A DNA stretch of 63,778 bases, filler included, from Dugesia japonica (lineage: Eukaryota), in the NCBI GenBank assembly GCA_001938525.1. It is 5 parts of 5 records of this genome, joined end to end, with 100 filler letters (N's around TTAATTAATTAA, not from the genome) between each part and the next. Parts side by side here need not be neighbours in the genome. Positions count along the whole stretch, not along the records: positions 1 to 17,723 come from MQRL01425888.1; positions 17,824 to 29,833 come from MQRL01641171.1; 3 more parts are not named here. One strand, given 5' to 3'. The notes below the pieces were generated by a model. It did not search any database and had not been told where the DNA came from. It saw only the letters and a list, made by a program, of their open reading frames with translations. Shown here one piece after another: positions 2,575 through 29,933 of this stretch. Both the position numbers and the translations under genes were made by a program. Numbering within the stretch: the stretch's first letter is position 1; every line of letters begins with the position of its first letter.

Positions 2575-3117
2575 AGATATTTGATTTTATTTGAAATAAT
2601 GAATATATTACTTTGTTCTTTTTTATTATACATATATATAATGCATTTTATTAATATTTTTTTGTAAATGAAAATGAATTCAAGAAAAGCGACAATGAAC
2701 AGGTTGAATATTTATTATTTTGTAATATTATTAATAAATTTATTTAAGGAATGCTCACAGATATTTTGGAAAAACGAGTATTGATTGAAGAAGAACTAAA
2801 GCCATTGTTACCGGATGTGATTATCAACTAGTATTTGATAGCTGAATTTTGCACACTTCACTGTATCACGTGTGCAAAGTATAATATGATGGTAGTTATG
2901 GAGAACCATCTGTCTGAAATGGAACATTATAATAATTACTTTTGTTATTATTAAATAAATGTATTTATATTTTGTCTTTCTTTTATTAAGTTTTTTTTAT
3001 TTATTATATTAAAAAATGTTTTTATAATTATAAATTAACAAGACGTTTTCATGTTTTATTTCAGTAATGGAAAACATAACGCTAAGTAAACATTAAATAA
3101 ACATTAAGTAAACAAAT

Positions 3118-3310
3118 TTATATCTTTTTTGAAATGTTTTTGACTTTCCATATAAGTCCTACTGAATTCATTGATTTCTTGAAGCCTTTAACCTCCACTT
3201 GAATCATTCATTGACTGTCGCTTTCATAATTGTTTTCATCTTGTTCATTAAAGGCTATATAAATTAGTCTCATTGACGTTAATTTGCCTGCTAAATCTTG
3301 CAAACATAGC
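3118..3310 (-). pseudogene. Decayed ORF resembling the C-terminus of the 18626 gene (possible OB-fold SSB)
   Basis: Translates ...YIAFNEQDENNYESDSQ*MIQVEVKGFKKSMNSVGLIWKVKNISKKI*, sharing the hxhxG(F/Y)KK...WKh pattern with VKILLQGYKKNGIQIPVWKL. Confidence 0.35.
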
Positions 3311-7401: not shown

Positions 7402-7800
7402 TTAACCCTTGCGCCCAGAAAGCTTTTGTACCAAAACCACACAGTAGTGTCTGACAGACACTACATAGAAAATCTTTTAAATTATAACAAAAGATAAAAA
7501 ATCTATTTTTATTACAGAGAAGAACACTGTTTGCATTGAATTTCTATGTAGAATGTTCAAGACAAGCATTTTGATTACATGTATTGCAACATTGTTTTGA
7601 GTTCCTGCAATTTTACACGGGCATATGTGACACCTTTTTCTTTTTACTGCGGATTCTTTTACGATTGAATCTTCAAACTGCTCTTGACTTGTACTTGCAA
7701 TATCCTACATGGCTTTCAAGTGTAACTCAGTAAACCTGTTTTTCCTTAGTCTCTGAATCTTGATTGTCACTGTCAGAATTATCATCATGATTTAAGTCTT
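7402..7800 (-). mobile_element. Internally deleted piggyBac remnant
   Basis: TTAA followed by CCCTT terminus at 7402-7410; subterminal palindrome GTAGTGTCTGACAGACACTAC; minus strand encodes a frameshifted Cys-rich C-terminal domain KRCHICPCK...CCNTCNQNACLEHS...CKQC. Confidence 0.75.
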
Positions 7801-7897: not shown

Positions 7898-9234
7898 CTA
7901 TCGATTCGATTTCTTGCAGAATCAAAGAGAAATAAACAGGGAGGACAATCAGCAAGAAAAAGACGAATACGAATATTTTAAACAAATTGTATATTCAGAG
8001 AGAAAATGTGCTTTAAAAGTAGAAATTATTTGGTATTTGTATATTAAAATCATTTGTATTAAACGTATTATAGTGTAGAATTATTATTAATATATGTTCT
8101 TATCTTTTTATGCCCTGCTTGCTTTTTCTAGAATGATTAGAAATGATTCAACCACCACTGAAAAATCAAATGAATGAATTGATAAAGTGAATATAATGAA
8201 ATATGATTCTGAAGTTCGAGTAAAATGAATTTTTAAGAGAAATGGTGGATAATCTCGTAGAATTAAGAAGTAAGATGTGCGCATTATAAATGATAATTAT
8301 TTGAAAATTTTAAATGAATTTTAGTCTAATGGTATTTTGATAAATATTATTAAAGCAGTGTTTAATTTTGCAACAGTAAATAGTTTGGCTAAAAAAATTT
8401 TGTAAAAGATTTTTGTAAACAACTTGTAGTAAATATTTAAGTAAATACTTGAGTAAAGATTGATTAAATTTGTAGTAACCTAATTTCAGTAACGAATGTG
8501 CGTAATCATTTTAATTAAAAGATTTAAGTAAAGAATTGAACGAACAATTGCAAATTATTGATTTCATTGTTTTATTTATTGTTTTGTTATTTTGATTATT
8601 ATTGAGCTGAGCTAACCTTAATAAGGATATTGTTGAATTAACATAGAGATTGATAAAGAAATTGATAATTTTACACTAAGAAATTTAATATCTTGACTTA
8701 AAATGAGCATAACAGTATTAAAAAACATGCAGAAATTGAACACGCACAACCTTGCATTGAATAATGATGAAATGGCTGAAAGATTATGAATTCATAAACA
8801 TATTCAGAATTATCTCACTTGTTTCGAAAGTAAGATCAAAATATTACCGGGTAAGTGAGGATAAATGAAGGTTGTCGCAAAGCATCGTACAAATGAAATG
8901 TTAAAGAGAAGTGTAAAATCGTGTTTTCAGGTTGGGAAAAGATGGACTGATAAAGACTGTTCCGGATCGGGTAAAATTATATAAAATACAATGAACATAT
9001 AAATTATGAAAGATACGTGCAAGATCAAGTTATCAATCATGTCGGGGTTGAAAATTCAAAGCTCAGGCACGATGTGTAATGGGATTGAGACACGGTGAAC
9101 AACAACATGATTATAAAAATTATAAAAATGAATAAAGAAACGACGGAATGAATCACAGTACATAAGCATTCACTATGAACAATCGGAAAGATGAATCTTT
9201 GAGGGCTCTGGAATCAACTATCATGCAATCAGCA

Positions 9235-9765
9235 ACCATTACCATAACCATTACTATAACCATTACCATAACCATTACCATAAGCAATACCATAACAATT
9301 ACCATAACCATTACTATAACCATTACCATAACCATTACCATAAGCAATACCATAACAATTACCATAACCATTACCATAACTATTACCATAACCATAACCA
9401 TAACCATTACCATAACCATTACCATAAACATTACCATAACCGTTACCATAACCATTACCATAACCATAACCATAACCATTACCATAACCATTACCATAAC
9501 CATTACTATAACCGTTACCATAACCATTACCATAACCATTACCATAACCATTACCATAACCATAACCATAACCATTACCATAACCATAACCATAACCATA
9601 ACCATTACCATAACCATTACCATAACCATTACCATAACCATTACCATAACCGTTACCATAACCATTACCATAACCAAAACCCTAACCATAACCATTACCA
9701 TAACCATTACCATAACCATTACTATAATCATTAACATAACCATTACCATAACCATTACTTTCCCA
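9235..9765. repeat. (ACCATA/ACCATT)n hexamer microsatellite, about 530 bp
   Basis: Directly visible; it explains the poly-TI and poly-MV ORFs. Confidence 0.97.
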
Positions 9766-9779
9766 TTACCTCTAAATTT

Positions 9780-10425
9780 TCTCTATAGAAAACTGGCAGC
9801 AAAGAAAATTCTCATATTAAACACATTATTCAATTCGGTAAATAATATTGTAAAGTTAGATGAGTTAAGTTCAAATAAAAATGAAGCTTTTTGTCATAAT
9901 GATTTAACAAGGGATGATGAAAATCAATATTTAAGATTATTAAAGAAACTTTATGGAGAAATAGGCAAGTTTGCTAATAATCAAGTGTTTAAGTCATAAA
10001 TATCTTTAATACTTTCTAAGTTTTGTTCAGATAGTTACAAGAGTTTAATAATTGATGGATTGAGTACTGAAAATAAAATGTATTTGGAAAATATTCAATT
10101 ATTAGAAAATCCCTATCAAAAAGAAAGAGATTAACATAATGAATTAAGAAAAAAATATAATGAGACATTAAAACCTGCAAATGTAGAATTATCTTGTTTA
10201 AATATGAGTGTTACAACATTAAAAAATGTTGATGAAAGTAAATTTACACCACAATACTTTAATGAATTAGCAAATAAATTTGTTGGACCAATTAATAAAT
10301 TCGATACAAGGTTAAAAAGACAAGATGTTCCAAAGGAATACCAAGATGAGTTAAAAACTATTTATGCAGGAAAAAGTAATTTTCCACAATTTCGAGTCAA
10401 ACAAACAAAATCAAAAGCACCATAA
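9780..10425 (+). pseudogene. Unknown element-A gene interrupted by two stops
   Basis: The tail of ORF 9175-9999, 10000-10203 and ORF 10204-10425 share one frame and abut the MCP. Confidence 0.5.
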
Positions 10426-10428
10426 TGT

Positions 10429-11729
10429 TTGTATTCAAAAATGGATTTGAATTATAATTATAAATTTCCTCATGTACAAAATAAAGTAGGCCTACTGAAA
10501 ATTTCACCAACCTCTGGTTCAATGATTAATTTAAATAAATCAGGAGAAGTAACATTTCAATCTTTAAAAAACACAAACCTATTGGACATTCGAAATGCAA
10601 AATTGTATTACAAGATTGAAATTGAACCAAAAGATGCTGTACTCAAGAATGATTGGTTTCCCAGTTTGTTTAGTTCAATGAGATTAAAACTTGGATCATC
10701 AACTATAGAAAGTATTGAAAACCCTGGAGTGGCATCTAAAATGTTGAATTTAATTATGATGGATGAATCTTATTTAAAATCTCCACGTGCATATGGAGGT
10801 GTACCTGATGTTAAAAATGGAACAGTTGACGATCCTAGTTTTGAAGCAAGAAAGTAATTGTTTTCATCTGGTTATTTCCCCTTGTGTAATTTCTTTGGTT
10901 TTTTACAAAATTATAATAGATTATTATTTAATGTTTTTATACAATTGGATCTTAATAGAAATGTACAAGATGAATTGATATTTTTTAATAAAAAGGGTAA
11001 AATTGAAATAAAGACTTTGGAATTACACATTCCAGAATGGACTTTGAATCCTAGAACAGAATTAAACTATGTGGAAAGATTAGCAACCAATAAAGGAATC
11101 CAAGTTTCATTTTTGGAGCGAGATGTAAATAAAAATTTAATTTCCAATAGAACAAACTTTTCAATTAAAATGGAAAATTTATCCTAATGACCAAACTTTG
11201 TAATTGTAGGATTTAAATCAACCAATTCTAGTTTTGATGTTAATAATAATTTGTTTTTTTTGAGTAGTTTAATAACAAAAAAGATTACAGTCAAGCAGAT
11301 GTAACAAAAAAGATTGATAAACAGTAGATAAACAAAGTTATAATAGAATAGAATAATAGTATAGTTTGTATATTATTTTAAATGTATACAATTAGAATTG
11401 AATAAAACATATTACCCAAATACTAGAATTGAATTTGATTACAAGAATACAATATTTCCATATCATAATTATGTGGATCTATGTGTAGCATTTAATTGTT
11501 GACCGCAATTGTCTATAAAACAATGGACTAGTTTGTATCCAATATTTTGTTTTGATACTTCTGCACAAGATGATAAAATGACAATAAACAATGTAGATAC
11601 ATAACAAAGGATAAAGAATTAACTGGAGACTTGTATTGGTTAATGTTACAAGAGAAATATGTTGAGTTTAAAATATCAAATGGTAAAGTCATGTTTGTAG
11701 AAAACATCAGAGGGGATGATGTAAAATGA
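10429..11729 (+). pseudogene. Double jelly-roll major capsid protein
   Basis: ORFs 10429-10857 and 10858-11187 are in frame across one stop; motifs LFSSMRLKLGSSTIESIENPG, PLCNFFGF, IKTLELHIP, PNFVIVGF, LELNKTYYP, LYPIFCFDTSAQ fit Polinton/adintovirus DJR capsids. Confidence 0.85.
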
Positions 11730-11789
11730 TGATGTAAAATACGACTGACTGACTGACTGACTGAAGATCGACTTAAAAGTGTTTATAAA

Positions 11790-13226
11790 ATGGCTACTTT
11801 CAAATGTTAAAAATTTTAACTCTTCAAGAGTGTAAGTAACAAGTCTCGTCACTTGAATATTTGTAAAGGCGTAGGAGCGACCGTAGGGAGAAATTCTTTT
11901 GGAAATATAAATGACAATGTTATTGGAAATTCTATTGGACATTCTATTGGAAATGTAAATGAAAATATTATTAGAAATGTTATTGGAAATTTAACCAACC
12001 AGAGAGCTCACTCCGTTAGCTCTGGTGGTGACCTTTAATCTTCTAAAACAACTTCATTATTATTAAAACCATTTACTAGTGAAAAGTATCCAGGAGAGCG
12101 ACATTTGTTTAAACATAATTATACTGGACCAGGAACTAGATTAGATATAAGATTAGATGAAAATAACAAACCAAAACCAGAACAAAAACCAATTAATAGA
12201 GTAGATGAAGCAGCTTTAAAACATGATATTGCTTACATTTCAACAGACATTAGAGATAGACATTTGGCAGATGTAAATTTGATTCATGATTTGAACAATA
12301 TGGAAAATCCTACTATTTCTGAAAAGATTCAAAAAGCTCTTGTTAAAGCAGCAGTGAAGGGTAAAATTTTAATTGGAAATTCTATTGGAAATAAAAATGT
12401 AACCAAACAGACTCATCGCTTCAATCGGAGTATATTATCATATATTATATATTATAAATATAGAAAACCAAAATATTTTCTAAAAGTAATAATAATTAGC
12501 AAGGATGAAACTTGTGGCTGTGATGTAATTAATATGGTTAAAATATCAACTGAGGGTTATAGATATATTTTAGTTTGTATAGACTTGTATACAAGATTTG
12601 GTTTTTGTAAACCAATGAAAAATAAAAATCAAAGATCTTTAAAAGAAGCTTATGAAAATATATTTGAAGAAAATAATAGAATTCCAAATAATATTTGGTC
12701 TGATAAAAAGTCTGCTATTAGATCAAAATACTTAAATAAATTCTTCAAGGAAAATAATATTAATTTGTATCATACTGAAAAAGGTAAATCAGTTTTTGCT
12801 GAAAGACTTATTAGGACTCTAAAAAATAAAATGTGGAAATTTTTTACTTTCGTTGGTAATCAAAATTGGGATAATAATTTGTTAGATAAAATTGTAAATG
12901 AATATAATAATACAATTCATTCTAGTATTAATGTGACTCAAAAAGAAGCATCTGAAAATCCAAATGTAATAAAAGAAATTATTAATAAACATAATAATGA
13001 AAATGATGTTAGTTTTAAACAGAAATTTAAAATTGGAGACAGAATTAGAATTTTCAAATACAAGTACAAATTTGAAAAAGAATTTACAGCCAAATGGACA
13101 AACGAATTATTTGTTGTAACAAAAGTATACAAAACAAAACCATTTACATATGGAATTAGTGATTTGGATAATGAAAAGATTCTAGATAGATTTTATGATA
13201 ATGAGCTTCAGAAAACAGTTTTGTAA
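11790..13226 (+). pseudogene. Zn-finger-like / parvovirus-type PLA2 / rve integrase fusion; 12105-13226 still open
   Basis: HNYTGPGT...PINRVDEAALKHDIAY (Ca-binding loop YxGPG, catalytic HD) followed in frame by CDVINM, LVCIDLYTRF, IWSD, AERLIRTLK, YNNTIHSSI, FKIGDRIRI...FYDNELQ. ATG 11790 and ORF 11853-12038 share the frame, with 3 stops. Confidence 0.9.
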
Positions 13227-13303
13227 AAGCGACCGAAGGAAGCGGTAGAAGCAGTAGTTTTTCCCTTCATTTTAGAATTTTTATTTTATATTAATATTAA
13301 ACA

Positions 13304-13687
13304 ATGTTAAATTATTACTACAATAAAATGTCAAATATTACAGAACAAGGTTTAATAGATTTGATTAATAGTAACAAATGTAAATCTGTTACTATTAATG
13401 GAAAAAAATATTGGATTAGAAAACGAGTCAAAGAAGAATTAAAAAAACATCAAGGTAAATTTTTGCCGCTTTTGGGTTTAATTTCTGAAATAGTTGCTGG
13501 AATAAGTGCAGCTGCCACTGCTGGTGTAGCCGGAGCAGCTGCCAGGATTGCATCTGCAGTCGCAAATTCACGAGAAGCAATTAAAAAGAGTAAAGAAATT
13601 ACTGAAATTGAAAAAAGAACAGAATTTTTGGATAAAGAATGGAACAAAAAAGGTCGAGATCATGTTCTAAAAGAATATGCAGTCTGA
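13304..13687 (+). CDS. Small Polinton/adintovirus virion protein with a GG|FLP-like amphipathic Ala/Gly segment
   Basis: Basic N-terminus, then HQGKFLPLLGLI...AGISAAATAGVAGAAARIASAV, resembling the recurrent GGFLP...GGAAGIA proteins of these elements. Confidence 0.65.
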   Translation: MLNYYYNKMSNITEQGLIDLINSNKCKSVTINGKKYWIRKRVKEELKKHQGKFLPLLGLISEIVAGISAAATAGVAGAAARIASAVANSREAIKKSKEITEIEKRTEFLDKEWNKKGRDHVLKEYAV

Positions 13688-13696
13688 GATGTAAAA

Positions 13697-16223
13697 ATGA
13701 AAAAATTTAATAATGAACAACATCAAAAGGAAAATGCACAACGATTACTTTTAATTCAACAATTGTACAAGGAATATGTAAATGATTATGAAATTAAAAC
13801 ATGTCGTGAAACAATGGTTGAATTAAAACGAAATCCTGAAGTAAAATAGAATTATCATAAAGTAGAATCTGAATCCTTGAACGAATTTCGACAAAGAATT
13901 AATTTTAATGAAATTGAAAAATATAGATTAAAAATTATGAATATAATCAAAATATTCTTTGATAATTATCAGAAAACAGTTTTTTATTTGAGTTTTTCAA
14001 CGAAATTTGAAAAAGATTATGGTGAAAATACAAATCGAACATGGTTTCGTGATTTTACAATTTCTGCTGGAAAGATTACAATTGAGTCTGACATTTCAAT
14101 TGTAGTTGATGTTATTCTAGATCAATTGAATCAAGAATTTTCGAAGTAAAAGGAGAAGGATCAGGTTGGTCATTTGATTTTTTGAATCATTTACAATTTA
14201 TTTATCAAAAAATAAATCATTGACTGAACAAAGTTTTTCTCCTTTACCTCGTGAATCGTCTTCAACAGTTGGTTTATTAAACATTAAAAATCCAGACAAC
14301 AAATGTTTTGATTATTGTATTCAAGCTCATTTGAATCCTTTATTGAGTGATTCGATTTATAATTATATTGACAATTTCTTTAATTTGGAATTTCCAGTTA
14401 AAATTTCAGACATTAAAAAGTTTGAACGTGAAAACAATTTCTTGGTCAATGTATTTGAAATTGTACCAGATCAACAAGAGCAAAAGAAAATTGTTAAACT
14501 ATACAATTCTCATTTTGATTCTAGGTCTGTCTTCAGTTAGAAAATGTAATTTATTATTTTTCAATAATCATTATATTCTCATTCGTGATTTGCATAAAAT
14601 ATAAAAGAGAAAATGACAAATTACATTCCAAATATTTATCACTTTTTTAATATTCTAAAGCAAAAAAAATGTCAGAAATAGCATATGAAATATTTAAAAA
14701 TGAATATTCCAAATTTAAGCATCTATTGGAATATACATTATACTATATGAAACTAGATGTACTAATTCTTACAGATTTCTTTGAAAATTTCAAACAAATA
14801 TCAATATACAGAAATGGAATCGATCTATTATATTGTTATTCTACACCAGGGTTAACATGGAAAATTGGCATGAAAGTTTCAAATTTAGAATTGAATTCTC
14901 CAAAAGAATAGAATTATGATTTATATCTAACCATTGAACAAGGAATACGTGGAGGTTATTCTGGTGTATGTGGTAATAGACATGTAGTGGCTGATGACGA
15001 GCACACTATAAAATGTCTAGATCAAAATACTTTATATTCTGCATGCATGACTGAAAGATTACCATTTGGTAAAATGAAATGGGCAAATGATTTGATCTAT
15101 CAACCGACAAGTAATGAATTTTTAATCCTAAATAATAAATAATTTTAAACAGATTATATTTATACAGTAGATTTAATTTATCCAAAAACAATAAATGACA
15201 AGACAAAATATTATCCACTAGCAGTAGACAAACAAATTGTCGATTACAATCAATCATCAGATTATCAAAAGAAATTATTGGGCACCAAGAAACAAAGTAA
15301 ATGTCCAAAATTAATTACGAATCAATTGGATAAAAAATATTATGTATGTCTGAACCAGGTTTTGGATTTCTATCTTGAACAAGGAATGCAATTGACAAAT
15401 GTACACAAGAAAAGTATAATAAAAACAAATCACTGGCTTAAAGATTATATTGAATCAAACATTACCAATAGAAATCTTGCCAAGAGAAATCACGATGCAT
15501 TTGGTGACAGTTTCTTTAAATTATTAAATAATGCATTTTATGGCAAGAGTCTAGAAAATGTTCGTAATCGTGAAAACTTACACTTGGCTACATCTGAAAG
15601 AATGATTAAAAATGCTGCATCAAAACCATCATTTAAATCTTCAATTATAATTAATGACCAAGTTGCTTTATTAAAAAATTTCAATTCATCAATCATGTAT
15701 AATAAATTTCCATATATTGGCTTCTTTGTTTTGGAATATGACAAATTGATAATGTACAAGTTTGTATATCATTACATGGAAAGTTTGATACCAGGACAAT
15801 ACAAAATCCATTTTTCAGGTACATATTCTCTAATAATGAAATTTATTCATCCTAACCAATCATGGGATGAATTTAAAATGAAAATATAACATTTATTTGG
15901 GAATAATCTTTTCCATATGAAGGATGAATTTCCAAATAAAGTAATTACTGAGGAATTTTTCATCAAGCAAAATCTTATTGCTAGTAAAGGAAAACACCAA
16001 ACACAAGGGAGTAAGTAAAACAAATCTCTTGACTAGTTTACATTATAAAAATGTCTTGTATAATAATGAAACTATCCAAGGAAAAAATTATTCAATAAAT
16101 TCCAAATTAAATGTTGTAAAAGAAACCCAACAAGTGAAAAAGGCACTAACCCCATTTGATGATAAAAGATACATTTTGAATGATTGTATTACAACTCTAC
16201 CATATGGATTTCATAAAAAATGA
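13697..16223 (+). pseudogene. Protein-primed family B DNA polymerase, frameshifted and internally deleted
   Basis: GEGSGW, LNIKNPDNKCF, YMKLDV (ExoIII), STPGLTW, GIRGG, LDQNTLY, FFKLLNNAFYGKSLEN, degenerate FSGTYSL for YxDTDS, KHKGV, PFDDKRYI...TLPYG; ExoI/II region missing near 14610. Confidence 0.93.
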
Positions 16224-16530: not shown

Positions 16531-16955
16531 AATAAACATTCCTCGTTTAAATTTTTATTCACCATTTAAATTTTCATATTAAATATCGTTCCCCGATTTA
16601 ATTTTAATATTAAATATCATTCCTCGATTAAATTTTTATTGCCGCTTGATTTTGCCAATTAGAATTTTAAATAACCAACACGACTAAAAATAAAAAAACT
16701 GTTGAAATTTAAAATCAAAATCAAAATTCCAAATCAAAATCAAAATTACAAATTAAATTAAAATACCAAATAGAAAATACGAGCAGAGATATATAATCGG
16801 GAATAAGCACCTTTGTCCTTTTCATCCTCAACTGTTGGCCATGAAAGCGGAAAGTCACCGTTGGCCGCTTCTACCCCAAATGAAAAATCACTGTTTGAGT
16901 GGGCAATAGTTAAGTGGGGGGGTGGGGTGCCTATTCCCGACTTTATATTTCTACT

Positions 16956-17239
16956 TACAGGATCATACTTTATAAGTCGTAATGCAGGAAACAATTCTAG
17001 TGTAAACCAGCAATTTGTTGTTTTTGCTAATTTATACAAATTGATTACAATTGTTAATGATTGCAAACAAAAATCTTTAATATAATATTGTAATTTTTCC
17101 ATTTCCAACGGTTTTTACATCCCATTATTCGACAATTTCCTGATTTTAAGAATATTATTGTATACTTACCGATAGGAAACTTCATTTTGCTTGTTACATC
17201 TTGTGTCACTTTACCTTTGTAATTAATATTAACTAACAT
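16956..17239 (-). pseudogene. TATA-binding-protein-like gene, frameshifted and truncated by element A
   Basis: MLVNINYKG...YTIIFLKSGNCRIMGCK (compare TBP IFxSGKxxxxGxK), then after a frameshift QSLTIVINLYKLAK...FTLELFPALRL (compare YEPELFPGL). Confidence 0.7.
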
Positions 17240-17357
17240 TACTAATGATTTTTATTAAATGTTCGTGTATATATGTATTTTTCAAAAATAAAATTGATTG
17301 ATTCATTTAAACAAAGTCAAACAGTATAATAAACAATCCATTAAATTAAATCTGTAA

Positions 17358-17665
17358 AATATTGAGTTAAGAAATGATGCTGTTTATCAAATTAAGGGTT
17401 TAAGCGGTAGTGGAAAAATCTTATTTGTATGCAAGTTACTAAAATCTAATTTATTTAAATTAAAGTTTAACAAATATATTGGCACAGAGGTGCAGATGAA
17501 GAGCATGGGTTGACACAATCAAAATTTTCCAAATTTAAAAGGAAAATTATAAATGAATTTGATAAAAATTGGAGCAAGAAATTGAAACCAGGTTATGTTA
17601 TCGTAGTAGATGATCTGTATCAGGAGACAAACAAAGAAAAGGACTTTAATAATTTTGTGAGGTAG
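17358..17665 (+). pseudogene. FtsK/HerA-type (A32-like) packaging ATPase fragment
   Basis: Walker A KGLSGSGK, one frameshift, then Walker B YVIVVDDL; not in the ORF track. Confidence 0.85.
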
Positions 17666-17723
17666 ATTAAATAGACAGATTGATTCAAGGAATTTTTTTG
17701 TGGCAAATCAATAAAAAAGTAAT

Positions 17724-17823
17724 NNNNNNNNNNNNNNNNNNNNNNNNNNNNNNNNNNNNNNNNNNNNTTAATTAATTAANNNNNNNNNNNNNNNNNNNNN
17801 NNNNNNNNNNNNNNNNNNNNNNN
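17724..17823. other. Artificial contig-join spacer (also about 29834-29933, 44894-44993, 54958-55057)
   Basis: 100-bp blocks of N with a central TTAATTAATTAA, which puts stops in all six frames. Confidence 0.9.
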
Positions 17824-17837
17824 TATTATCAAGACTT

Positions 17838-19234
17838 TAAGACATCAAACTACAATAACAATAATAACAACAACAATAACAACAAATTTTCTAAAAACGA
17901 TTAGCAATTGAAAACATCCATCAATTTCCATACACGAATTTTGATGCAATTTTTTCTTTTGTAACCCTGTAGTAAATGTTTGACTTTAACCATAACATCT
18001 TGAGCGGGCATACATGGATTTTCAGAATTGTCATACCAATTGAAGTCAGTCGCTTGAATATAGAAAGATTTTTCATATGAATATTTTTTTCCATTTCTGT
18101 TTCAATTTGACGTAATTCATCTTTCAAAAATTGAATATTTCTATCTGTCAATTGCGATATCTGGAAGCCGAATTTAACTTTTTGCAACTTGACAACGTCC
18201 GGTAGAAGCAACGATTTATGCTCTTTAAGGAAAGCCATTTGATAACCATGATAAGTTACCATCGGATTAAAATTTCCCAAAGAAAATAAAATTAATGGAA
18301 TAATAGTACAATTATAATTAAATAAAACCATCAAAGTTTTGCTTTTCCTCACCAAATATTTCTTCATAAGTTAATTTTCTTCGATTTTGATCTATTTGTT
18401 CATTGAATTGACAAGAAAAATCAAGCATCTTTTTCAGTCGTCTCATTAATTTGAGAATGAATTCTACCTTTCTTCCACCTTCGGTATATGTTTGCAGCTC
18501 CTCANNNNNNNNNNNNNNNNNNNNNNNNNNNNNNNNNNNNNNNNNNNNNNNNNNATCAAGACATCAAACTACAATAACAATACTAATAATAATAACAACA
18601 ATAACAACAAGTTTTTTAAAAAGGATTAACAATTGAAAACGTCCATCAATTTCCATACAGGAATTTGGATTCCATTTTTTTTGTAACCTTGCAGTAAAAT
18701 TTTAACTTTAACCATACCATCTTGCACGGGCATACACGGATTTCCAGAATTGTCATACCAATTGAAGTCCGTCGCTCGAATATANNNNNNNNNNNNNNNN
18801 NNNNNNNNNNNNNNNNNNNNNNNNNNNNNNNNNNNNNNNNNNNNNNNNNNNNNNNNNNNNNNNNNNNNNNNNNNNNNNNNNNNNNNNNNNNNNNNNNNNN
18901 NNNNNNNNNNNNNNNNNNNNNNNNNNNNNNNNNNNNNNNNNNNCTCTTTAAGGAAAGCCATTTTATAACCATGATAAGTTACCATCGGATTGAAATTTCT
19001 TAAAGAAAATAAAATTAATGGAATAATAGTACAATAATAATAAAATAAAACCTTCATTGTTTTGATTTTCCTCACCAAATATTTCTTCATAAGTTAATTT
19101 TCTTCGATTTTTGATCCATTTGGCCATGTTCATTGAATTGACAAGAAAAGTCAAGCATCTATTTCAGTCGTCTCATTAATTTGAGAATGAATTCTACCTT
19201 TCTTCCACCTTCGGTATATGTTTGCAGCTCCTCA
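17838..19234. repeat. Tandem duplication of about 720 bp
   Basis: About 17838-18504 versus 18556-19234; diverged through the coding part and nearly identical near 18440-18504 / 19170-19234. Confidence 0.85.
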
Positions 19235-19262
19235 ATTGCTTTTTCAACTGGTTTTTTGTCAT
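18626..19262 (-). pseudogene. Intron-containing unknown gene, possible OB-fold ssDNA-binding protein; second copy at about 17903-18504
   Basis: Removing a 39-nt GT-AG intron (19159-19197) and a ~52-nt intron (about 19000-19051, acceptor mutated) joins MTKNQLKKQ...RCLTFLVNS...EEIFGEE...NFNPMVTYHGY...VKVKILLQGYKKNGIQIPVWKLMDVFNC. Confidence 0.5.
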
Positions 19263-19680
19263 CTTCAATGGAAATGTAGCGAGAGTTATTCATCATTATC
19301 ATCATTTGAAATTTATGATAAAATGAAAAATGGCATTTCCTTATAAACTATTTTACTTAATCAATAGTATTGATGTCATCAAACAACATTTTGGCAAATT
19401 AAAATATTTATTGCATCTGCATTGCTACTGTTTAATTTAATGTTTTTAAATTAAAGAGAAAAAGAAAAAATACATCCAAATTTGTATTAGATAATAATAA
19501 ATTTAACAATCATTTGAACAATAATNNNNNNNNNNNNNNNNNNNNNNNNNNNNNNNNNNNNNNNNNNNNNNNNNNATATACCTTGTTTTTATTTCTTATT
19601 TAATATGTTTAATTTAATGTTTTTAAAGTAAAGAGAAAAAGAAAAAATAAATCCAAACTTTTTATTAGATAATAATAAAT

Positions 19681-19875
19681 TTAACAATCATTTAAACCAT
19701 AATCGTTTTCAACATCATCCATAAGGTTTTTCTTTTCATCATCCATATCGTTTCCTTCGTCTTCATTTGAATCAAGCATGTTTTTAGATGAAGCAAGTTT
19801 CAAAACTTCTTCAATCAACGTAGTTGCATATTCATTGATAATGAACAAACTTTGTTTTTCCTCTTCAATATTCAT
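19681..19875 (-). CDS. Small acidic hypothetical protein
   Basis: ATG-initiated 64-aa D/E-rich ORF transcribed divergently from the TBP-like gene. Confidence 0.35.
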   Translation of the reverse strand: MNIEEEKQSLFIINEYATTLIEEVLKLASSKNMLDSNEDEGNDMDDEKKNLMDDVENDYGLNDC

Positions 19876-19965
19876 AATTGTAAAGAATTTTTAATCACCA
19901 TATTGATTTTGTTTATAGTCAAAAAGTATAAATAGACCGAAATAAGTCACTTTTATTTTGTAATT

Positions 19966-20167
19966 ATGTCATTGTCAAATATTTGATTATAAAGGATATA
20001 TTACTGAAAATTTAGATAGTCTTCAATTTAGTTATAAACCGAAACAATGTGTATTAAAATATCCCGATTATACAATAATCATATTTCAAAATGGAAAATG
20101 TAGAATAATGGGATATAAAATGCCATTAGAAAGAAAAGACCTTCCATTCAAGATAAAGGAGATTTAA
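19966..20167 (+). pseudogene. Second TBP-like gene (N-terminal repeat only)
   Basis: MSLSNI[fs]DYKGYITE...KPKQCVLKYPDYTIIIFQNGKCRIMGYKMPL...PFKIKEI*; homologous to the 17239 gene; TATAAATA at 19927. Confidence 0.7.
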
Positions 20168-20717
20168 GTAATAATAATAATAGTAATATAAAACAACTTT
20201 AATATTTTTTTTTAGTTTGTCGTTTCAACCATTTGACAATTGAAGACGAATTANNNNNNNNNNNNNNNNNNNNNNNNNNNNNNNNNNNNNTATTTCAAAT
20301 TGTCTTATTATCTTTCGAAATTATAATAGTAATAAAATTTAATAAAAATAGTTTCATAAAATATTTATTTTTAAGACTAAAAAAACTTAAATTTCAAAAA
20401 AAAATAATATTCAAAAAATATTTTCACTTTTCACAAATTTTTTTTTATTTTTCTACTAAATAAAATATCTATTTCCCATTACAAAAATAAACTTTCAAAA
20501 AAGTATTCTAAAAGTTGCTCAAAAATATAGGAAGAATCACGGAAAGGAACTTTGTAACGTTATATCGTCACCAATATTCTATAAAAAAATTTCACAAAAT
20601 TATCATTAGACTCTACATATTTTCCTATATTTTTTCAGTTTTTAAAATATTCAATTATCTAAAAATATTATTTTATTTTTTCATAAAAAATTCAGAAAAA
20701 ATTCAAGAAAATGTTTT

Positions 20718-20974
20718 ATTGCCATAGTAACAGTTGCCAAACATCCGCCCACCTTAGCTGCACATTACCCACTAAGTTTCCGCGCGCCATTCTCCTTAGT
20801 TACCGCACAAAATCAATTTTTTCAAATCTCTGTTGGTTGCCATGGAAACCGTCGTGATCACGGTTCCGGTACCGTTACCATGACTACAATCGCGATCACC
20901 GTTTTTAGTTGCTGAGATGTTTTAGTTATCAAGCCCCCTCCCCCCTTGTCCTCAACTCCTCCCTTCTATCTACT
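20718..20974 (+). mobile_element. GC-rich right terminus ending CTATCTACT, with X-box and E2F-like motifs
   Basis: GTTGCCATGGAAAC at 20836-20849, near-copies at 20718 and 20874, TTTCCGCGCGCC at 20777, C-tracts, then CTATCTACT ending 20974. Confidence 0.55.
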
Positions 20975-21389
20975 GATGGCGCCAGTCATAATTGTTTTAC
21001 AATTGCAATTATTGCGAGAATAATTGTCGGACATAACCATTGATCGTTTTACAGAATTCATTTAAAATAAAAGCTTCGATCAAAAAAATTTTTTTTTGAT
21101 ATCATAATTTAGTCCAAATGAAATTTATAACTAAATGTTTTGCAAGAAATTGTATGCCATTGTATTAAGATTGTCTATACCTTACAACACAATACTCCTA
21201 ATGCTGTTTTCACATGATAGATACGTTCCTCAAAAAGATACAGTAATTATATAAAAACGAGGTACTGGTTTCACATTTGAAAATAAATTAAAATAATGTC
21301 CCTCACATATACGAATTTATCTTATTTATGTAAATTACACCATTTATTTTGTTTTATAAATAGCTATTTATAAAAAATAATTTATATAA

Positions 21390-23475: not shown

Positions 23476-25810
23476 GATGTAGTGTTTCTTTCCATCCAAA
23501 AAAGCTTATTGTCTAAGCACGACAGTGCACATTTCTTGCTTTCGATCGTATACAGCCGGTGATTTATTGATCGAAAGCTAGTTTGCTTAACTTTAATTAT
23601 TTACCTAACTTGTTTTTCTTCATTTTCTTCTTCTTCTGCACATATTCCATGATATATATTTAAATAATTTACATTTTGGATATTAGTTTGTTTTAAAATA
23701 ATACCTTTGACTTTCATCGTTATGATTGAATCTTTTATCTTCTTCAAACTGTAACACTTTGGTCGCAAAAAACTCATTCATCATAATCTTCTCCTTGACT
23801 TTCATCTTTGAACAACCTGATTTTATTGGCCACTTCAGTAGTATAAAGTGGATGAACTTTAGGATAATTATTGGTAATCAGTAAACCGTCCGATTTCATT
23901 TCACTCAACAATTTGTTTTATCCACTCCAGTACATGGTAAGAAAAAGCTGTCCGTATTACTTGCAATGATATTGATTTTGCAGTCAAATTGATTTCTATA
24001 TTTTTCTTACTCTTCATACTGTAACTGGTACATGAGCAACTTGCTAAGATTTAACACCACCTAACCAATATAACTAGGCCTATCCAGACAAAAACAATCC
24101 TTCTCCAGCAAGACAGNCTTTTATCCCTCTGCAATATCCATAGTATCTTTGAATGTTACTTTGCTCGTATATGTAACAAATTTATTTTCATTATTACAGA
24201 ATCAGATATTCATTCACTTCGTTAAATTCTCAACCGTCTTGGCGTACAGAGCATTATTCAGCAACTTATAGAAATCCTTCTCAAATTTTGTCTTGGAAGC
24301 CGCTTTTCTCGCTGAATTTGAGTTCAAGTAATTCATAAAAATCTCCGCATGTTTAAATTTAATAATCCTATGTACTGCTGCCACATGAGCTCCAAGCTTT
24401 ATGTATAGTTCCAACAATCGCCAATAAGTAATGTAATGACTTTTTGGCTCATGTGTTAGCAGTAGCTTTTTCACCTTTGATCCTGGTGGGCATTTATGCT
24501 CTGGAGCTAAAAGTAATTGATCTAACCTATCATGATGTTCAATAGGCATCTCCAGATCAATTTTCAACAGGTATCCAACTTCATTATTGTTGTTGCTACT
24601 ACATAATATTATTTGGTACTTCTCTTCAATCTGCTCTTCCAATATGAATTCAAAATCTCTGTATGGTAAAGGCTGTGTTAATTCCCATTCATATAGATTA
24701 TTAACATCATTGTAAAGCAATGAAGTATTCTCATCTGCTAGCACGTAATGTCTATTTACGAATGTCATAGCACTTCAAATTCTTGTTTAAAATAACCGAT
24801 ACATTTCCGGATCTTGTAGTAATTCCAATGGTCTATCCAAGGTTTTAAGAGCACTTGACCAACTCAATCCAGGTAGCGATACGAATCAAAGTGACTCTAA
24901 CCTATGTTCTTCAAGTGCCTTTTTTCTGAATGTTTGGAATACATAAGCCAATAGGTAAATAACCAGTTTCATATAATATCAAATCTATTACAAAAGATTC
25001 TCGCTCTTAGATTCCGTCCATGCCGACATTGCTATTTGATATTCTTCACTGGTTATTTTTTGCCATTTTGCTGGTAGGAAGTTTTGATTAACAAGCGTCT
25101 TATAAGATGTCGCAAATTTGAATGGAAATATTCCTTTACTCTGATGTTCTTGCTGTGGAAATTCACTTGATTTAATTGGCTAGCCTTCGAGATTTGCAGT
25201 TAATGCTGATAATGAACTGCTCAGAAATCAAAAGGAATCAATAAACCGAATTGTGACTTTATTACCCATACATGCAAACATTGCCAGGAATCTTTATGTG
25301 GTTTGTGATATTGACCAGAGCTCCCAATGCTGGAATAGATTTAGGTCATACTTGATTGTATGATGAGAATCATAAACTTTAAAGTTATGAAACACAACAG
25401 GTAATTCCATCCTGATCTTCTTGGACAAGTTGCATTGATTGTCTGCAGCTCCAATACATTTTCCCGAGAAATAATCGTGATCTCGAACCAGCTTTTTGTT
25501 TTTAATTCCATACAAGTAGCAATGTGCGCTTTTCAATCGTTGTTATTTTCATGTCTGCACACATGTTTTTCTTGTACCAAGGTGCAACCACATTTTTTGA
25601 TAATGCATCAATACAATGGAGAAACTGAAACATACAATTTTCTCCAGAAAATGAATGATATTCACATTTTCTTGTTTCGTCCAGCAATGAAATTAATAAA
25701 AGTCCCACAGCTAATGGTACATGCTTTACTCGACCATCATCTTTCTGAATCAAAAGAGCTTCTATATATGCGTATACTATTGAACAATATACCAATATTA
25801 TTATCACAAT
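23476..25810 (-). pseudogene. Protein-primed family B DNA polymerase of element B
   Basis: VRDHDYFSGK...CNL, VVFHNFKVYDSH, IRFIDSF, KGIFP, SLPGLSW, YNDVNNLY, FYKLLNNALYAKTVEN, NTDSF, KVKGI, LSCLDNK; many stops and frameshifts. Confidence 0.92.
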
Positions 25811-27479: not shown

Positions 27480-27775
27480 TATTGTTCCTAAGGTTAATAG
27501 GCTATGCAAATGTATTTGATGGAACTGATTCCATGTGCAAACATAAATAATGATTATTGATATATTTTGATATGTGTTGATTTATTTAGTCCATACGCAC
27601 GTGGAGTTTCAGTAAAACGGAAATCTGATAAAGATATTTTGTTGGCTTTGACGGCAATGATTAAAGATGTTCACCCGAAAGCTATTCAAACCGATTTGGG
27701 TAAAGAGCTTTATAATACCCCGGTCAAATCATTACTGAAACAAAATTGCATACTGCACTATCCAGTATTTTCTCA
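27480..27775 (+). pseudogene. Polinton integrase core fragment
   Basis: YILICVDLFSPYA...KRKS...PKAIQTDLGKELYN...ILHY; breaks off before the catalytic E. Confidence 0.8.
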
Positions 27776-27779
27776 TATG

Positions 27780-28058
27780 TGTCTTACATATGTGCAATCA
27801 ATTATTCGTTATATGGGTCTGTTAAATGTAGATCGAAACAATGGTATTACAATGAAGGAATTTAAAGACTCATTTACGTTTTTCACCTCTGTATCGGCTC
27901 AGGACCTTGCAGTTGATCAACCAAAATTGCCTAAAACCGGCAATCTCAATTTGGATGTGCGATTCTAGAAAGCCTTGACAGAATCAGTAACAACGTATGC
28001 ATATGGAATATTTGATTTGGAAATTCAAATCACCAAGAATAGAGTAGTAATTGGATAA
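27780..28058 (+). pseudogene. Polinton major capsid protein, C-terminal fragment
   Basis: NNGITMKEFKDSFTFF...DL...KTGNLNLDVRF*KALTESVTTYAYGIFDLEIQITKNRVV fits the classic Polinton MCP C-terminus. Confidence 0.8.
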
Positions 28059-28172
28059 ACAATGCATACATACATACTTGTGTGTATGTGTATTGCAGAA
28101 CATGAAGTATGGATTGTTTTTCTACAAAGAATAATTTTATTGATTGATAGTAATTTCTAGATTAAAACAATA

Positions 28173-28494
28173 TTGAAACATAAATTTGGTAGTAGGCGAT
28201 TCAAAAGAGTATATCCACTGGAACAATTACCGGACTTTCTTCGAAATGGATCCTTTGTGATCAATACACACACATCAAATTTAGATGGTGTACATGGGAT
28301 TGCTATTCACGTCAAACCAAATATTAATCGTGTATTTGATCCAGTGGATATGTTTTATTCACCAATGCTGGTAACAAATTGGAGCGTATACAGCAGCGTG
28401 TCGAGTATAATCAAGTCTTTTACCAAATTCTATTGATATTTTTATGTGGACAATATTGTATTAAATGGCTCAAAAGCCAGTATAGACAATCTTA
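28173..28494 (+). pseudogene. Adenain-like cysteine maturation protease
   Basis: FVINTHTSNLDGVHGIA (HW mutated to HG), FDP, then after a frameshift YQ...CGQYCI. Confidence 0.82.
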
Positions 28495-28519
28495 ACGTGA
28501 TTATTAATAAATATTTAAA

Positions 28520-28966
28520 ATGTCAGTGTTTTTAATTGATTATGAAGTCTTTCAGTATAATAATGGTGACTATCTAATTAAANAATTGCGTAAAATGGAT
28601 GTTGGTAATATTCTTCAACCGTTTTATTACATGTTTGCCATGACGGAATCAATGGTTAGTTTACCAAAGTCTGCTCAAACAACCAATGAGTACTTACGAC
28701 TCTGGCGTCGTCATCTCAGATGGATTGATCTAGATTGTAAATTTGATCCAATTCAAATTCTGAATGACTTGCAAGCAATTCTTGATAATGCATTGTTTTA
28801 TGTGAATGGAAAGAAAATTAATACTCTCAAACACTTTTTTCCGAGTCTTCTAACTGTTAATTATAACTCAAAGGGGCAATCTCAAATAAGTATATCGGAT
28901 AATAATGTCTGTCCATATTATAATCAAGGAGATTACGGTGCTTACAAGAAATGTTTAAAACTGTAA
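28520..28966 (+). CDS. Polinton accessory protein with a DnaQ/DEDD-like fold
   Basis: FLIDYEVF...YLIKxL...TNEYL...HLRW...FYVNGKK and a C-terminal CP...C, resembling a recurrent Polinton gene (D.E/Q.F...KE...H...W). Confidence 0.55.
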   Translation: MSVFLIDYEVFQYNNGDYLIKXLRKMDVGNILQPFYYMFAMTESMVSLPKSAQTTNEYLRLWRRHLRWIDLDCKFDPIQILNDLQAILDNALFYVNGKKINTLKHFFPSLLTVNYNSKGQSQISISDNNVCPYYNQGDYGAYKKCLKL

Positions 28967-29933
28967 GTACATTGCCAGCAATCGTGTAAATAAACATTTT
29001 CTTTACGTATTTTTTTTATTAATAATAATATAAATTATTATAATAATATTGATAATAATAATAAAATATTAAGATTCATCAATAAAGTCATGCTTGAAGT
29101 GTAAAATTTCACACATAAAACATGAAGGTTCACACGTAAAAATATATTGAAGCTCATCATTAGTTTTACTTCAAATTGGAAAAGGTTTGAAAAATCTAGA
29201 TTTAAGGTGTGAAAGTTCATTATTTACATTACGGCGAGAAATTTCCCACATAAAAAACATTTAGATTGTGAAAGTTCAGTATTTAGATTAAGGCGTGAAA
29301 GTTTACACTCGAGGTGGGATAATTCACGCATAAAAAACATTTATTAAAGGCGTGAAAATTGACCTCAAAGGTGTGAAAATTCACTCCAATTGTTGTTTAC
29401 ATAAAGAGGCGTGAACGGTGATGCGCCACTTCAAGTCGTAAAAGCAACTAACCAACTACTTCAGAAAATTTGAACTACTAACAAAAACTAATAAAATATT
29501 AAAAATAAATAAAGAAAACAACATTTTGATCGAAACTTTCAATTCAAATTTATATTTAAATGTAATTTTAAAATATAACCATTTTAATAATCAATTTAAT
29601 AATATTGATATCTGACAAAAATTTTAAAATACGATTTTTATGTTTATTGAATTTATATTAATTGAAATCAGTGTTTCGAATCCAATAATTATTTTAGAAA
29701 TAATTACATTAGCATTAAATATTTTATATTAAATAATCAATGAAATAAATATAATAATAAATATATTATTTATAATTAAAATTAAATTAATAAATTTGTG
29801 ATTAGAAAATTTTTTTCTGGAATTCGAAAATTCNNNNNNNNNNNNNNNNNNNNNNNNNNNNNNNNNNNNNNNNNNNNTTAATTAATTAANNNNNNNNNNN
29901 NNNNNNNNNNNNNNNNNNNNNNNNNNNNNNNNN

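Follow-up and report, generated by a model that had tools for sequence, protein, structure and literature searches.

Shortened TATA-binding protein genes in two decayed, probably Polinton-type elements of Dugesia japonica

Viral proteins with a TATA-binding protein (TBP) fold are already known from large DNA viruses and herpesviruses. ORF24 of Kaposi's sarcoma-associated herpesvirus and BcRF1 of Epstein-Barr virus, the TBP mimics of the beta/gamma-herpesviruses, are TBP-fold proteins of nuclear DNA viruses that use host RNA polymerase II (PMC12529657), and the TBP-like proteins of large double-stranded DNA viruses share the fold and have lost the regulatory signature of its N-terminal lobe (PMC7221094). 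For Polintons, Mavericks, adintoviruses and MELD viruses, Starrett et al. (2021; PMC8502044), in the legend to their Fig. 5, label a TBP gene in MELD viruses with an adintovirus-like PolB; the legend stands within a section on non-animal datasets, with no element named in the text and no TBP family, architecture or promoter given, and one supplementary text file contains no mention of TBP or TATA. Here we describe a 63,778-nt stretch of DNA from Dugesia japonica (assembly GCA_001938525.1; hereafter the window), in which positions 16,956 to 20,974 carry two decayed copies of a gene for a shortened TBP (mini-TBP). We consider these to be, probably, the remains of two different Polinton/adintovirus-type elements, each with a shortened TBP gene that is likely to have acted as a late-gene switch when intact. 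The interest lies in the mini-TBP family, of which the window supplies decayed and fragmented examples only.

With the second window copy as query, six intact relatives were recovered, 144-199 aa long and 45-83% identical to it, the closest being P0001 (83%), and a search with the family profile returned 354 proteins, ordinary TBPs counted in. Lengths of 140-165 aa were found for 111 of the best 120 family-profile matches, and a library reduced at 50% identity holds 60 representatives with E below 1e-30. P0001 matches the TBP family PF00352 with E 2e-20. An AlphaFold2 model of this intact relative, built from an alignment of 119 sequences, reached a predicted local distance difference test score (pLDDT) of 95.8; in a Foldseek search of the PDB its ranks 1-44 are all TBP-containing entries (best E 9e-9), and it superposes on TBP (VIA) with Z 13.7 and a root-mean-square deviation of 2.6 A over 146 aligned residues, its full length. 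Cellular TBP (PF00352; yeast 1YTB, human 1CDW) has the same saddle fold (Z 13.3-13.7), and fold matches in BFVD are large-dsDNA-virus TBP-like proteins of greater length, with 8-18% identity to the model. As modelled, members of the mini-TBP family form the whole two-lobed TBP saddle within ~150 aa, and the TBP identity that the initial annotation had read from the broken genes is upheld by structure search for the intact relative.

A quick tree of 39 of the 119 family proteins, 12 of the 17 family loci described below and 16 cellular-type TBPs, with no animal TBP or TRF2 among them, separates 51 family rows from the 16 cellular-type rows with Shimodaira-Hasegawa-like approximate likelihood ratio (SH-aLRT) support of 98. 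This split bears on the reading of the window copies as decayed host TBP/TRF paralogues lying by chance among Polinton debris. Although the ELF/EIF-type stirrup of the family is nearer to eukaryotic TBP than to the archaeal EQF type, the host-paralogue reading is largely refuted, and to us scarcely credible, given the tree and the hundreds of intact, equally shortened relatives with viral neighbours. Two members, L017:642-1232 and L015:1471-2022, sit on long branches; L017 appears to retain more of the N-lobe helices and could stand midway between full TBP and mini-TBP.

An algal TBP, that of L054, served as the map for 131 family sequences; the yeast numbering agrees with Table 1 of PMC12529657, which is also the source of the list of DNA-contact residues. 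Conserved positions include N69 (120 of 131), F116 (130), F190 (130), P191 (119) and F207 (131), together with the TFIIB-binding glutamates E186 (123) and E188 (131), as in cellular TBP. Of the four DNA-intercalating phenylalanines, a class of residue that the initial annotation had marked for checking, three (F116, F190 and F207) are in place, and the fourth, F99, aligns with proline in 127 sequences. The DNA face is altered at V71>N (127), V122>R (130), V161>T (112) and L205>N (131), with further changes at T124>M (130) and N159>S (128), which makes the base-facing surface polar, unlike that of cellular TBP. Mini-TBP also differs from its cellular counterpart in being mobile-element-encoded and ~30 aa shorter, with both N-lobe helices deleted in alignment and model: H1 is gapped in 130 of the 131 sequences and H2 largely gapped in 120-131, and in the P0001 model strands 2-12 and 28-31 have no helix separating them, while strand 63 is preceded by a helix of just 3 residues. 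Two C-lobe glutamates bind TFIIB, and a basic N-lobe patch, mostly on H2, binds TFIIA, TAF1, Brf and Mot1 (PMC7221094). Taken with the residue pattern, these assignments predict a protein that has kept the polymerase adapter face, lost the regulatory face and reads a different DNA sequence. Herpesvirus ORF24 carries polar swaps of the same kind at V122, T124, V161 and L205, but it is a 752-aa protein that keeps all four phenylalanines, lacks the TFIIB glutamates, clashes with TFIIB as modelled and needs viral partners, whereas mini-TBP is a bare core with the TFIIB glutamates (PMC12529657). The TBPs of large dsDNA viruses differ in another way, their adapter residues reportedly having diverged and a TFIIB of their own often being present (PMC7221094).

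From at least 481 confirmed metagenome matches we kept 80 loci, of which 17, each under 5.8 kb, hold the mini-TBP family and the other 63 are by inspection cellular-type TBPs. A gene resembling single-stranded-DNA-binding proteins (SSB-like) adjoins mini-TBP in 10 of the 17 loci. Three have a Pox_A32-type ATPase, which in L015 lies head-to-head with the TBP gene, as in the window, and in L001 and L004 matches PF04665 above cut-off. Adenain occurs in two loci, the near-identical pair L007 (PF00770, E 1e-5) and L009, outside the interval of the finding itself; a pX-like open reading frame (ORF) occurs in two, and a PZ/exonuclease-like ORF in four. No recognisable neighbour was seen in L002, L006 and L014. 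The ATPase, adenain and pX-like neighbours are common to Polintons/Mavericks/adintoviruses and MELD viruses (PMC8502044), and the linkage to viral genes anticipated for the TBP-like genes was found in the form of ATPase, adenain and SSB-like genes beside family members. Scans of viral contigs with TBP, capsid-like and ATPase queries returned no family locus and one cellular-type TBP. In L013, a leucine-rich-repeat ORF with a signal-peptide-like start (1304-1843) directly follows the SSB-like gene, has an ATAAAC box ahead of it and is possibly captured cargo.

The SSB-like family resembles Pox_I3/DUF5871/DUF2738 proteins through its Atlas look-alikes (Pox_I3 making up 12% of the cluster); its model has template modelling (TM) scores of 0.50-0.55 to clusters of nucleocytoplasmic large DNA viruses (NCLDV) at a predicted TM score (pTM) of 0.58, with a top feature score of 0.93, and the proteins of L011, L012 and L016 end in an acidic tail. 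No Pfam or PDB sequence match and no homologue outside the family itself was found, and the look-alikes and acidic tails make this a candidate SSB with a possible OB-type fold. Poxvirus I3 and NCLDV SSB-like proteins (PF04661, PF19196, PF10927) are its structural look-alikes, from which it differs in carrying a short GT-AG intron in three loci: in L001, L003 and L005 this intron is 43-46 nt long, in phase 0 and placed just before an xxGY motif. The adjacency of the SSB-like gene, with the ATPase near in 3 of the 17 loci, would also suit a mini-TBP that serves as a DNA-bending helper of replication or packaging and binds the termini together with the SSB-like protein. We regard such a helper role as quite unlikely, since near-invariant E186/E188 are expected only with TFIIB binding and TATAAAC is absent from the terminal region of the window at 20293-20974.

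The test for a promoter box covered a single motif, ATAAAC, in the pattern ATAAAC-N22-34-ATG. L004 has 11 matches against 1.85 expected (reached in 0 of 200 shuffles); six lead to the first ATG of ORFs that measure 60 aa or more, among which are its ATPase and SSB-like genes. L001 has four against 1.42 expected (7 of 200 shuffles), three of them at listed ORF starts. Altogether the 17 family loci hold 30 box-ATG matches spread over 10 loci, and in some elements the box stands ~30-40 nt ahead of genes other than mini-TBP. None of the 16 loci that contain the mini-TBP start has the box ahead of it, and the presence of the box ahead of many other genes and its absence from the TBP genes suggest a late-gene switch. 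The N-lobe of TBP touches the TATA box in its 3' half, the part in which TATAAAC differs from the consensus. In the window, the candidate divergent promoter ahead of the second mini-TBP copy has ATAAAC on the minus strand (19916-19911), facing the acidic ORF, and, at 19927-19934 on the plus strand, a canonical TATAAATA that precedes the mini-TBP ATG by 39 nt; L004 has the same layout, with ATAAAC on the minus strand at 2425 and TATATAAG 40 nt ahead of the TBP ATG. The box ahead of the ATPase remnant is weak by itself because of its spacing and because the nearest ATG does not share the reading frame of the remnant. Were mini-TBP instead a decoy or repressor that dampens host transcription, by sitting on the TATA boxes of the host or by sequestering TFIIB, the retained TFIIB glutamate pair and the lost TFIIA/TAF1 face could give a non-productive complex. 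We think this unlikely, as recognition of the element's own promoters better fits both a gene-proximal box that avoids the TBP gene and a DNA face that is altered yet strongly conserved.

Under the late-gene switch that we favour, host TBP would start the mini-TBP gene early from an ordinary TATA box, and the mini-TBP, with its changed DNA face, would then bind the (T)ATAAAC box and recruit host TFIIB and RNA polymerase II via the conserved acidic stirrup. Loss of the basic N-lobe helix would allow escape from control by Mot1/BTAF1, TAF1, TFIIA and Brf1, and from its absence we infer that mini-TBP may be committed to the packaging and capsid genes of the element. Promoter binding, DNA bending and TFIIB recruitment are in this scheme predictions. 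A broader claim, which we put forward tentatively and with slightly more doubt than belief, is that these elements form a widespread animal-Polinton group with an autonomous early-to-late cascade, in which the smallest known TBP reads TATAAAC, uses host TFIIB and is proof against Mot1/BTAF1. A dedicated TBP with a matching box would give the first mechanism for the timing of gene expression in Polintons and would make this question, along with whether these elements still act as viruses, testable with one small protein. A TBP of 146 aa in which the TFIIB face is retained and the regulatory face is gone would be a natural experiment on which parts of TBP are needed for initiation. Mini-TBP and its box are a candidate orthogonal promoter system; if true, the cascade would be such a system for RNA polymerase II in a virus-like transposon, evolved in parallel with the herpesvirus TBP mimics, and functional evidence for a true viral life cycle of these elements.

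Several observations weigh against the late-gene switch. None of the 17 listed family loci, each short, shows a protein-primed DNA polymerase B gene (pPolB) or both element ends. The capsid label of a 413-aa ORF in L007 is weak: this ORF resembles a PF21738-positive capsid only slightly (3 of 1000 shuffles) and has no Pfam or PDB match; a cut-off ORF at the end of L001 is a candidate integrase start, with no significant match found. The F99>P assignment comes from a sequence alignment across a deletion. ATAAAC is not enriched in L005 (2 against 3.6 expected), in L007 (7 against 5.2) or in the window as a whole, 7 of the 17 family loci have no box-ATG match, and the two boxes of the window fit only with a wider spacing, chosen afterwards. 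The L001 and L004 contigs share an assembly prefix, and words of this kind are favoured by AT-rich intergenic DNA. RNA was surveyed in two runs, of which ~6% and ~25% were read; the reads over the second mini-TBP copy are few, stem from other copies and are of uncertain strand.

As to what is new, the initial annotation had proposed an undescribed lineage. The TBP label in the MELD-virus legend (PMC8502044) qualifies this, as that TBP may belong to the mini-TBP family; in the literature covered, with subscription journals, Repbase and bioRxiv supplements outside its scope, we found no description of the mini-TBP family, its minimal build, the box, the SSB-like gene or the intron.

The features of the window are collected in Table 1. 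Both mini-TBP copies are dead. Copy 1 has one frameshift near 17113 and two short in-frame deletions and has lost its 3' third; its pieces are 61-69% identical to P0095/P0067, and individually these broken pieces have no Pfam or PDB match. Its homology ends at the start of a 174-bp AG...CT unit, and a search for the lost 3' end to the left of and beyond this unit gave nothing above chance level. Copy 2 has a frameshift a few codons past its ATG and is left with the N-terminal lobe alone, matching PF00352 at E 0.011, below cut-off; the depth of related contigs over it collapses past ~20160, and its second lobe, sought in the window, gave nothing above chance. No other ORF piece of the window scores under E 0.7 with the family profile. 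The initial annotation had placed two homologous TBP-like pseudogenes here, and the profile matches and a 52-nt inverted pair that is 79% alike agree with it. They belong to different subfamilies, copy 2 being of P0001 type and copy 1 of P0095/P0067 type (P0095 and P0001 are 45% identical).

Table 1. Coordinates of features in and around the interval under study
Feature	Position	Strand	Remarks
Separate decayed Alpha-adintovirus-like Polinton	10135..16223	+	Double jelly-roll (DJR) capsid, PLA2-like+integrase, pPolB; PF21738, PF08398, PF00665, PF03175
174-bp GC-rich (46%) unit, imperfect ~60-bp inverted repeats, AG...CT	16782..16955	.	Truncates copy 1
Mini-TBP pseudogene copy 1	16956..17239	-	Family profile matches in two frames: 17057-17251 (E 4e-13) and 16761-17114 (E 7e-13)
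ATAAAC box, candidate late promoter of ATPase remnant	17329..17334	+	Nearest ATG 39 nt away
Packaging ATPase remnant (A32/FtsK-like), frameshifted	17358..17662	+	Contig stops at 17723
Artificial join	17724..17823		N44-spacer-N44; falls inside the stretch under study
SSB-like gene, duplicate broken copy	17839..18504	-	86-93% identical to 18558-19234; profile E 4e-5
SSB-like gene, broken, N gap inside	18629..19305	-	tblastn to L003 E 8e-4
AT-rich 53-nt stretch, GT...AG, candidate remnant of an intron	18999..19051	-	Near intron position of L001, L003, L005
Acidic ORF, 64 aa	19681..19875	-	No family match
Candidate divergent promoter	19876..19965	.	Between acidic ORF and mini-TBP copy 2
Mini-TBP pseudogene copy 2	19966..20167	+	Family profile E 1e-21 (19964-20164), profile positions 6-65
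GC-rich (47%) terminal region ending CTACT	20720..20974	.	37-N gap between region and copy 2

The head-to-head arrangement of copy 1 with a packaging ATPase, the artificial join between the two halves, the acidic ORF and an end on the next contig were all part of the initial annotation and were found again: at 17364-17656 the ATPase remnant is 54-63% identical to the Pox_A32-type ATPases of L001/L004, and one contig piece of the 16 shown stops exactly at 20974, which is likely to be an element end. Only this end is seen, the partner terminal repeat not being in the window; AG...CT is a Polinton-type end motif. The SSB-like gene of the window matches its own family with E 4e-5 to 1e-4, consistent with the earlier label. 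The claim of an intron-containing gene fared less well: the GT...AG stretch lies close to where the relatives have their intron, but it restores no open frame and the duplicate SSB-like copy is without the AG. No splice joint was seen at the SSB-like gene in the two partly read RNA runs, which is no evidence either way. New relative to that annotation are the second AG...CT unit, cutting copy 1 at 16956, the doubling of the SSB-like gene and the further N gaps described below.

For the 174-bp unit there are two readings, a terminus of the pPolB element next to it and a small insertion of non-autonomous type; its flanks show no clear target-site duplication. The unit bears on whether a single virus comprises the pPolB/integrase/capsid block (10135-16223) together with the TBP-ATPase pair and what lies to the right. 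Copy 1 does lie ~730 bp from the pPolB end on the same contig, and the unit could be a later small insertion. However, the part that copy 1 has lost was not found beyond the unit, the two TBPs are of different subfamilies with an artificial join between them, and a BLAST comparison of the capsid at 10858 with the capsid-like gene next to the L007 mini-TBP gave no significant match; we consider a single virus very unlikely. The window pPolB near copy 1 is found only beyond the AG...CT unit, and because this unit cuts copy 1 off and the capsid does not significantly match the capsid-like ORF of L007, the pPolB cannot be assigned to the TBP element from the window. The single lineage proposed for the window is accordingly not sustained, and the accompanying caution that two related elements might be involved is borne out by the two subfamilies. 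The block itself is assigned by PLA2X, a marker of Alpha adintoviruses (PMC8502044, section 3.2), and adintovirus-type genes are described there as restricted to animals.

Assembly quality limits how the second contig can be read. The joins between parts have the form N44-spacer-N44, with an identical spacer at 29834, 44894 and 54958, and the second contig is broken by further N gaps at 18505, 18785, 19526 and 20254; 19525 is joined to 19709 by one contig of another run. As the SSB-like gene is doubled, this scaffold may mix copies. In two runs (organism A), diverged contigs by the dozen lie over the SSB-like stretch and over the TBP stretch, with up to 38 contigs at one TBP position, which marks a repeat family, summed contig depth not being equal to copy number. 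An Rfam search of the window gave no match.

Further observations concern the surroundings. A very high-copy host repeat at 20992-21101 follows right after the element end and is unrelated to it; the window has at least five more copies, and many RNA reads fall on it. Within the terminal region, 20836-20849 matches the RFX X-box consensus, and a looser site lies at 20874-20887 (minus strand); these are the sole matches to these patterns in the window. The SSB-like profile matches, with its C-terminal strands, a short stretch at 3121-3207 (minus strand; E 0.003) that is perhaps another remnant; an ATAAAC-ATG match lies at 3097-3136 on the opposite strand. The second contig also holds a third decayed Polinton, at 24214-25542 (minus strand) and 27561-28966 (plus strand), with pPolB, integrase and capsid-like pieces (the last 44% identical to L007) and protease-like and PZ-like ORFs; no mini-TBP was detected in it, though one follows the PZ-like gene in four relatives. 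An ORF at 9166-9999, immediately upstream of where the pPolB element has its capsid genes, contains a long 6/12-nt tandem repeat (TITITI...) and is possibly fibre-like or spurious, and to the left of the element a Cys-rich piece at 7477-7704 (minus strand) resembles the C-terminus of a piggyBac transposase.

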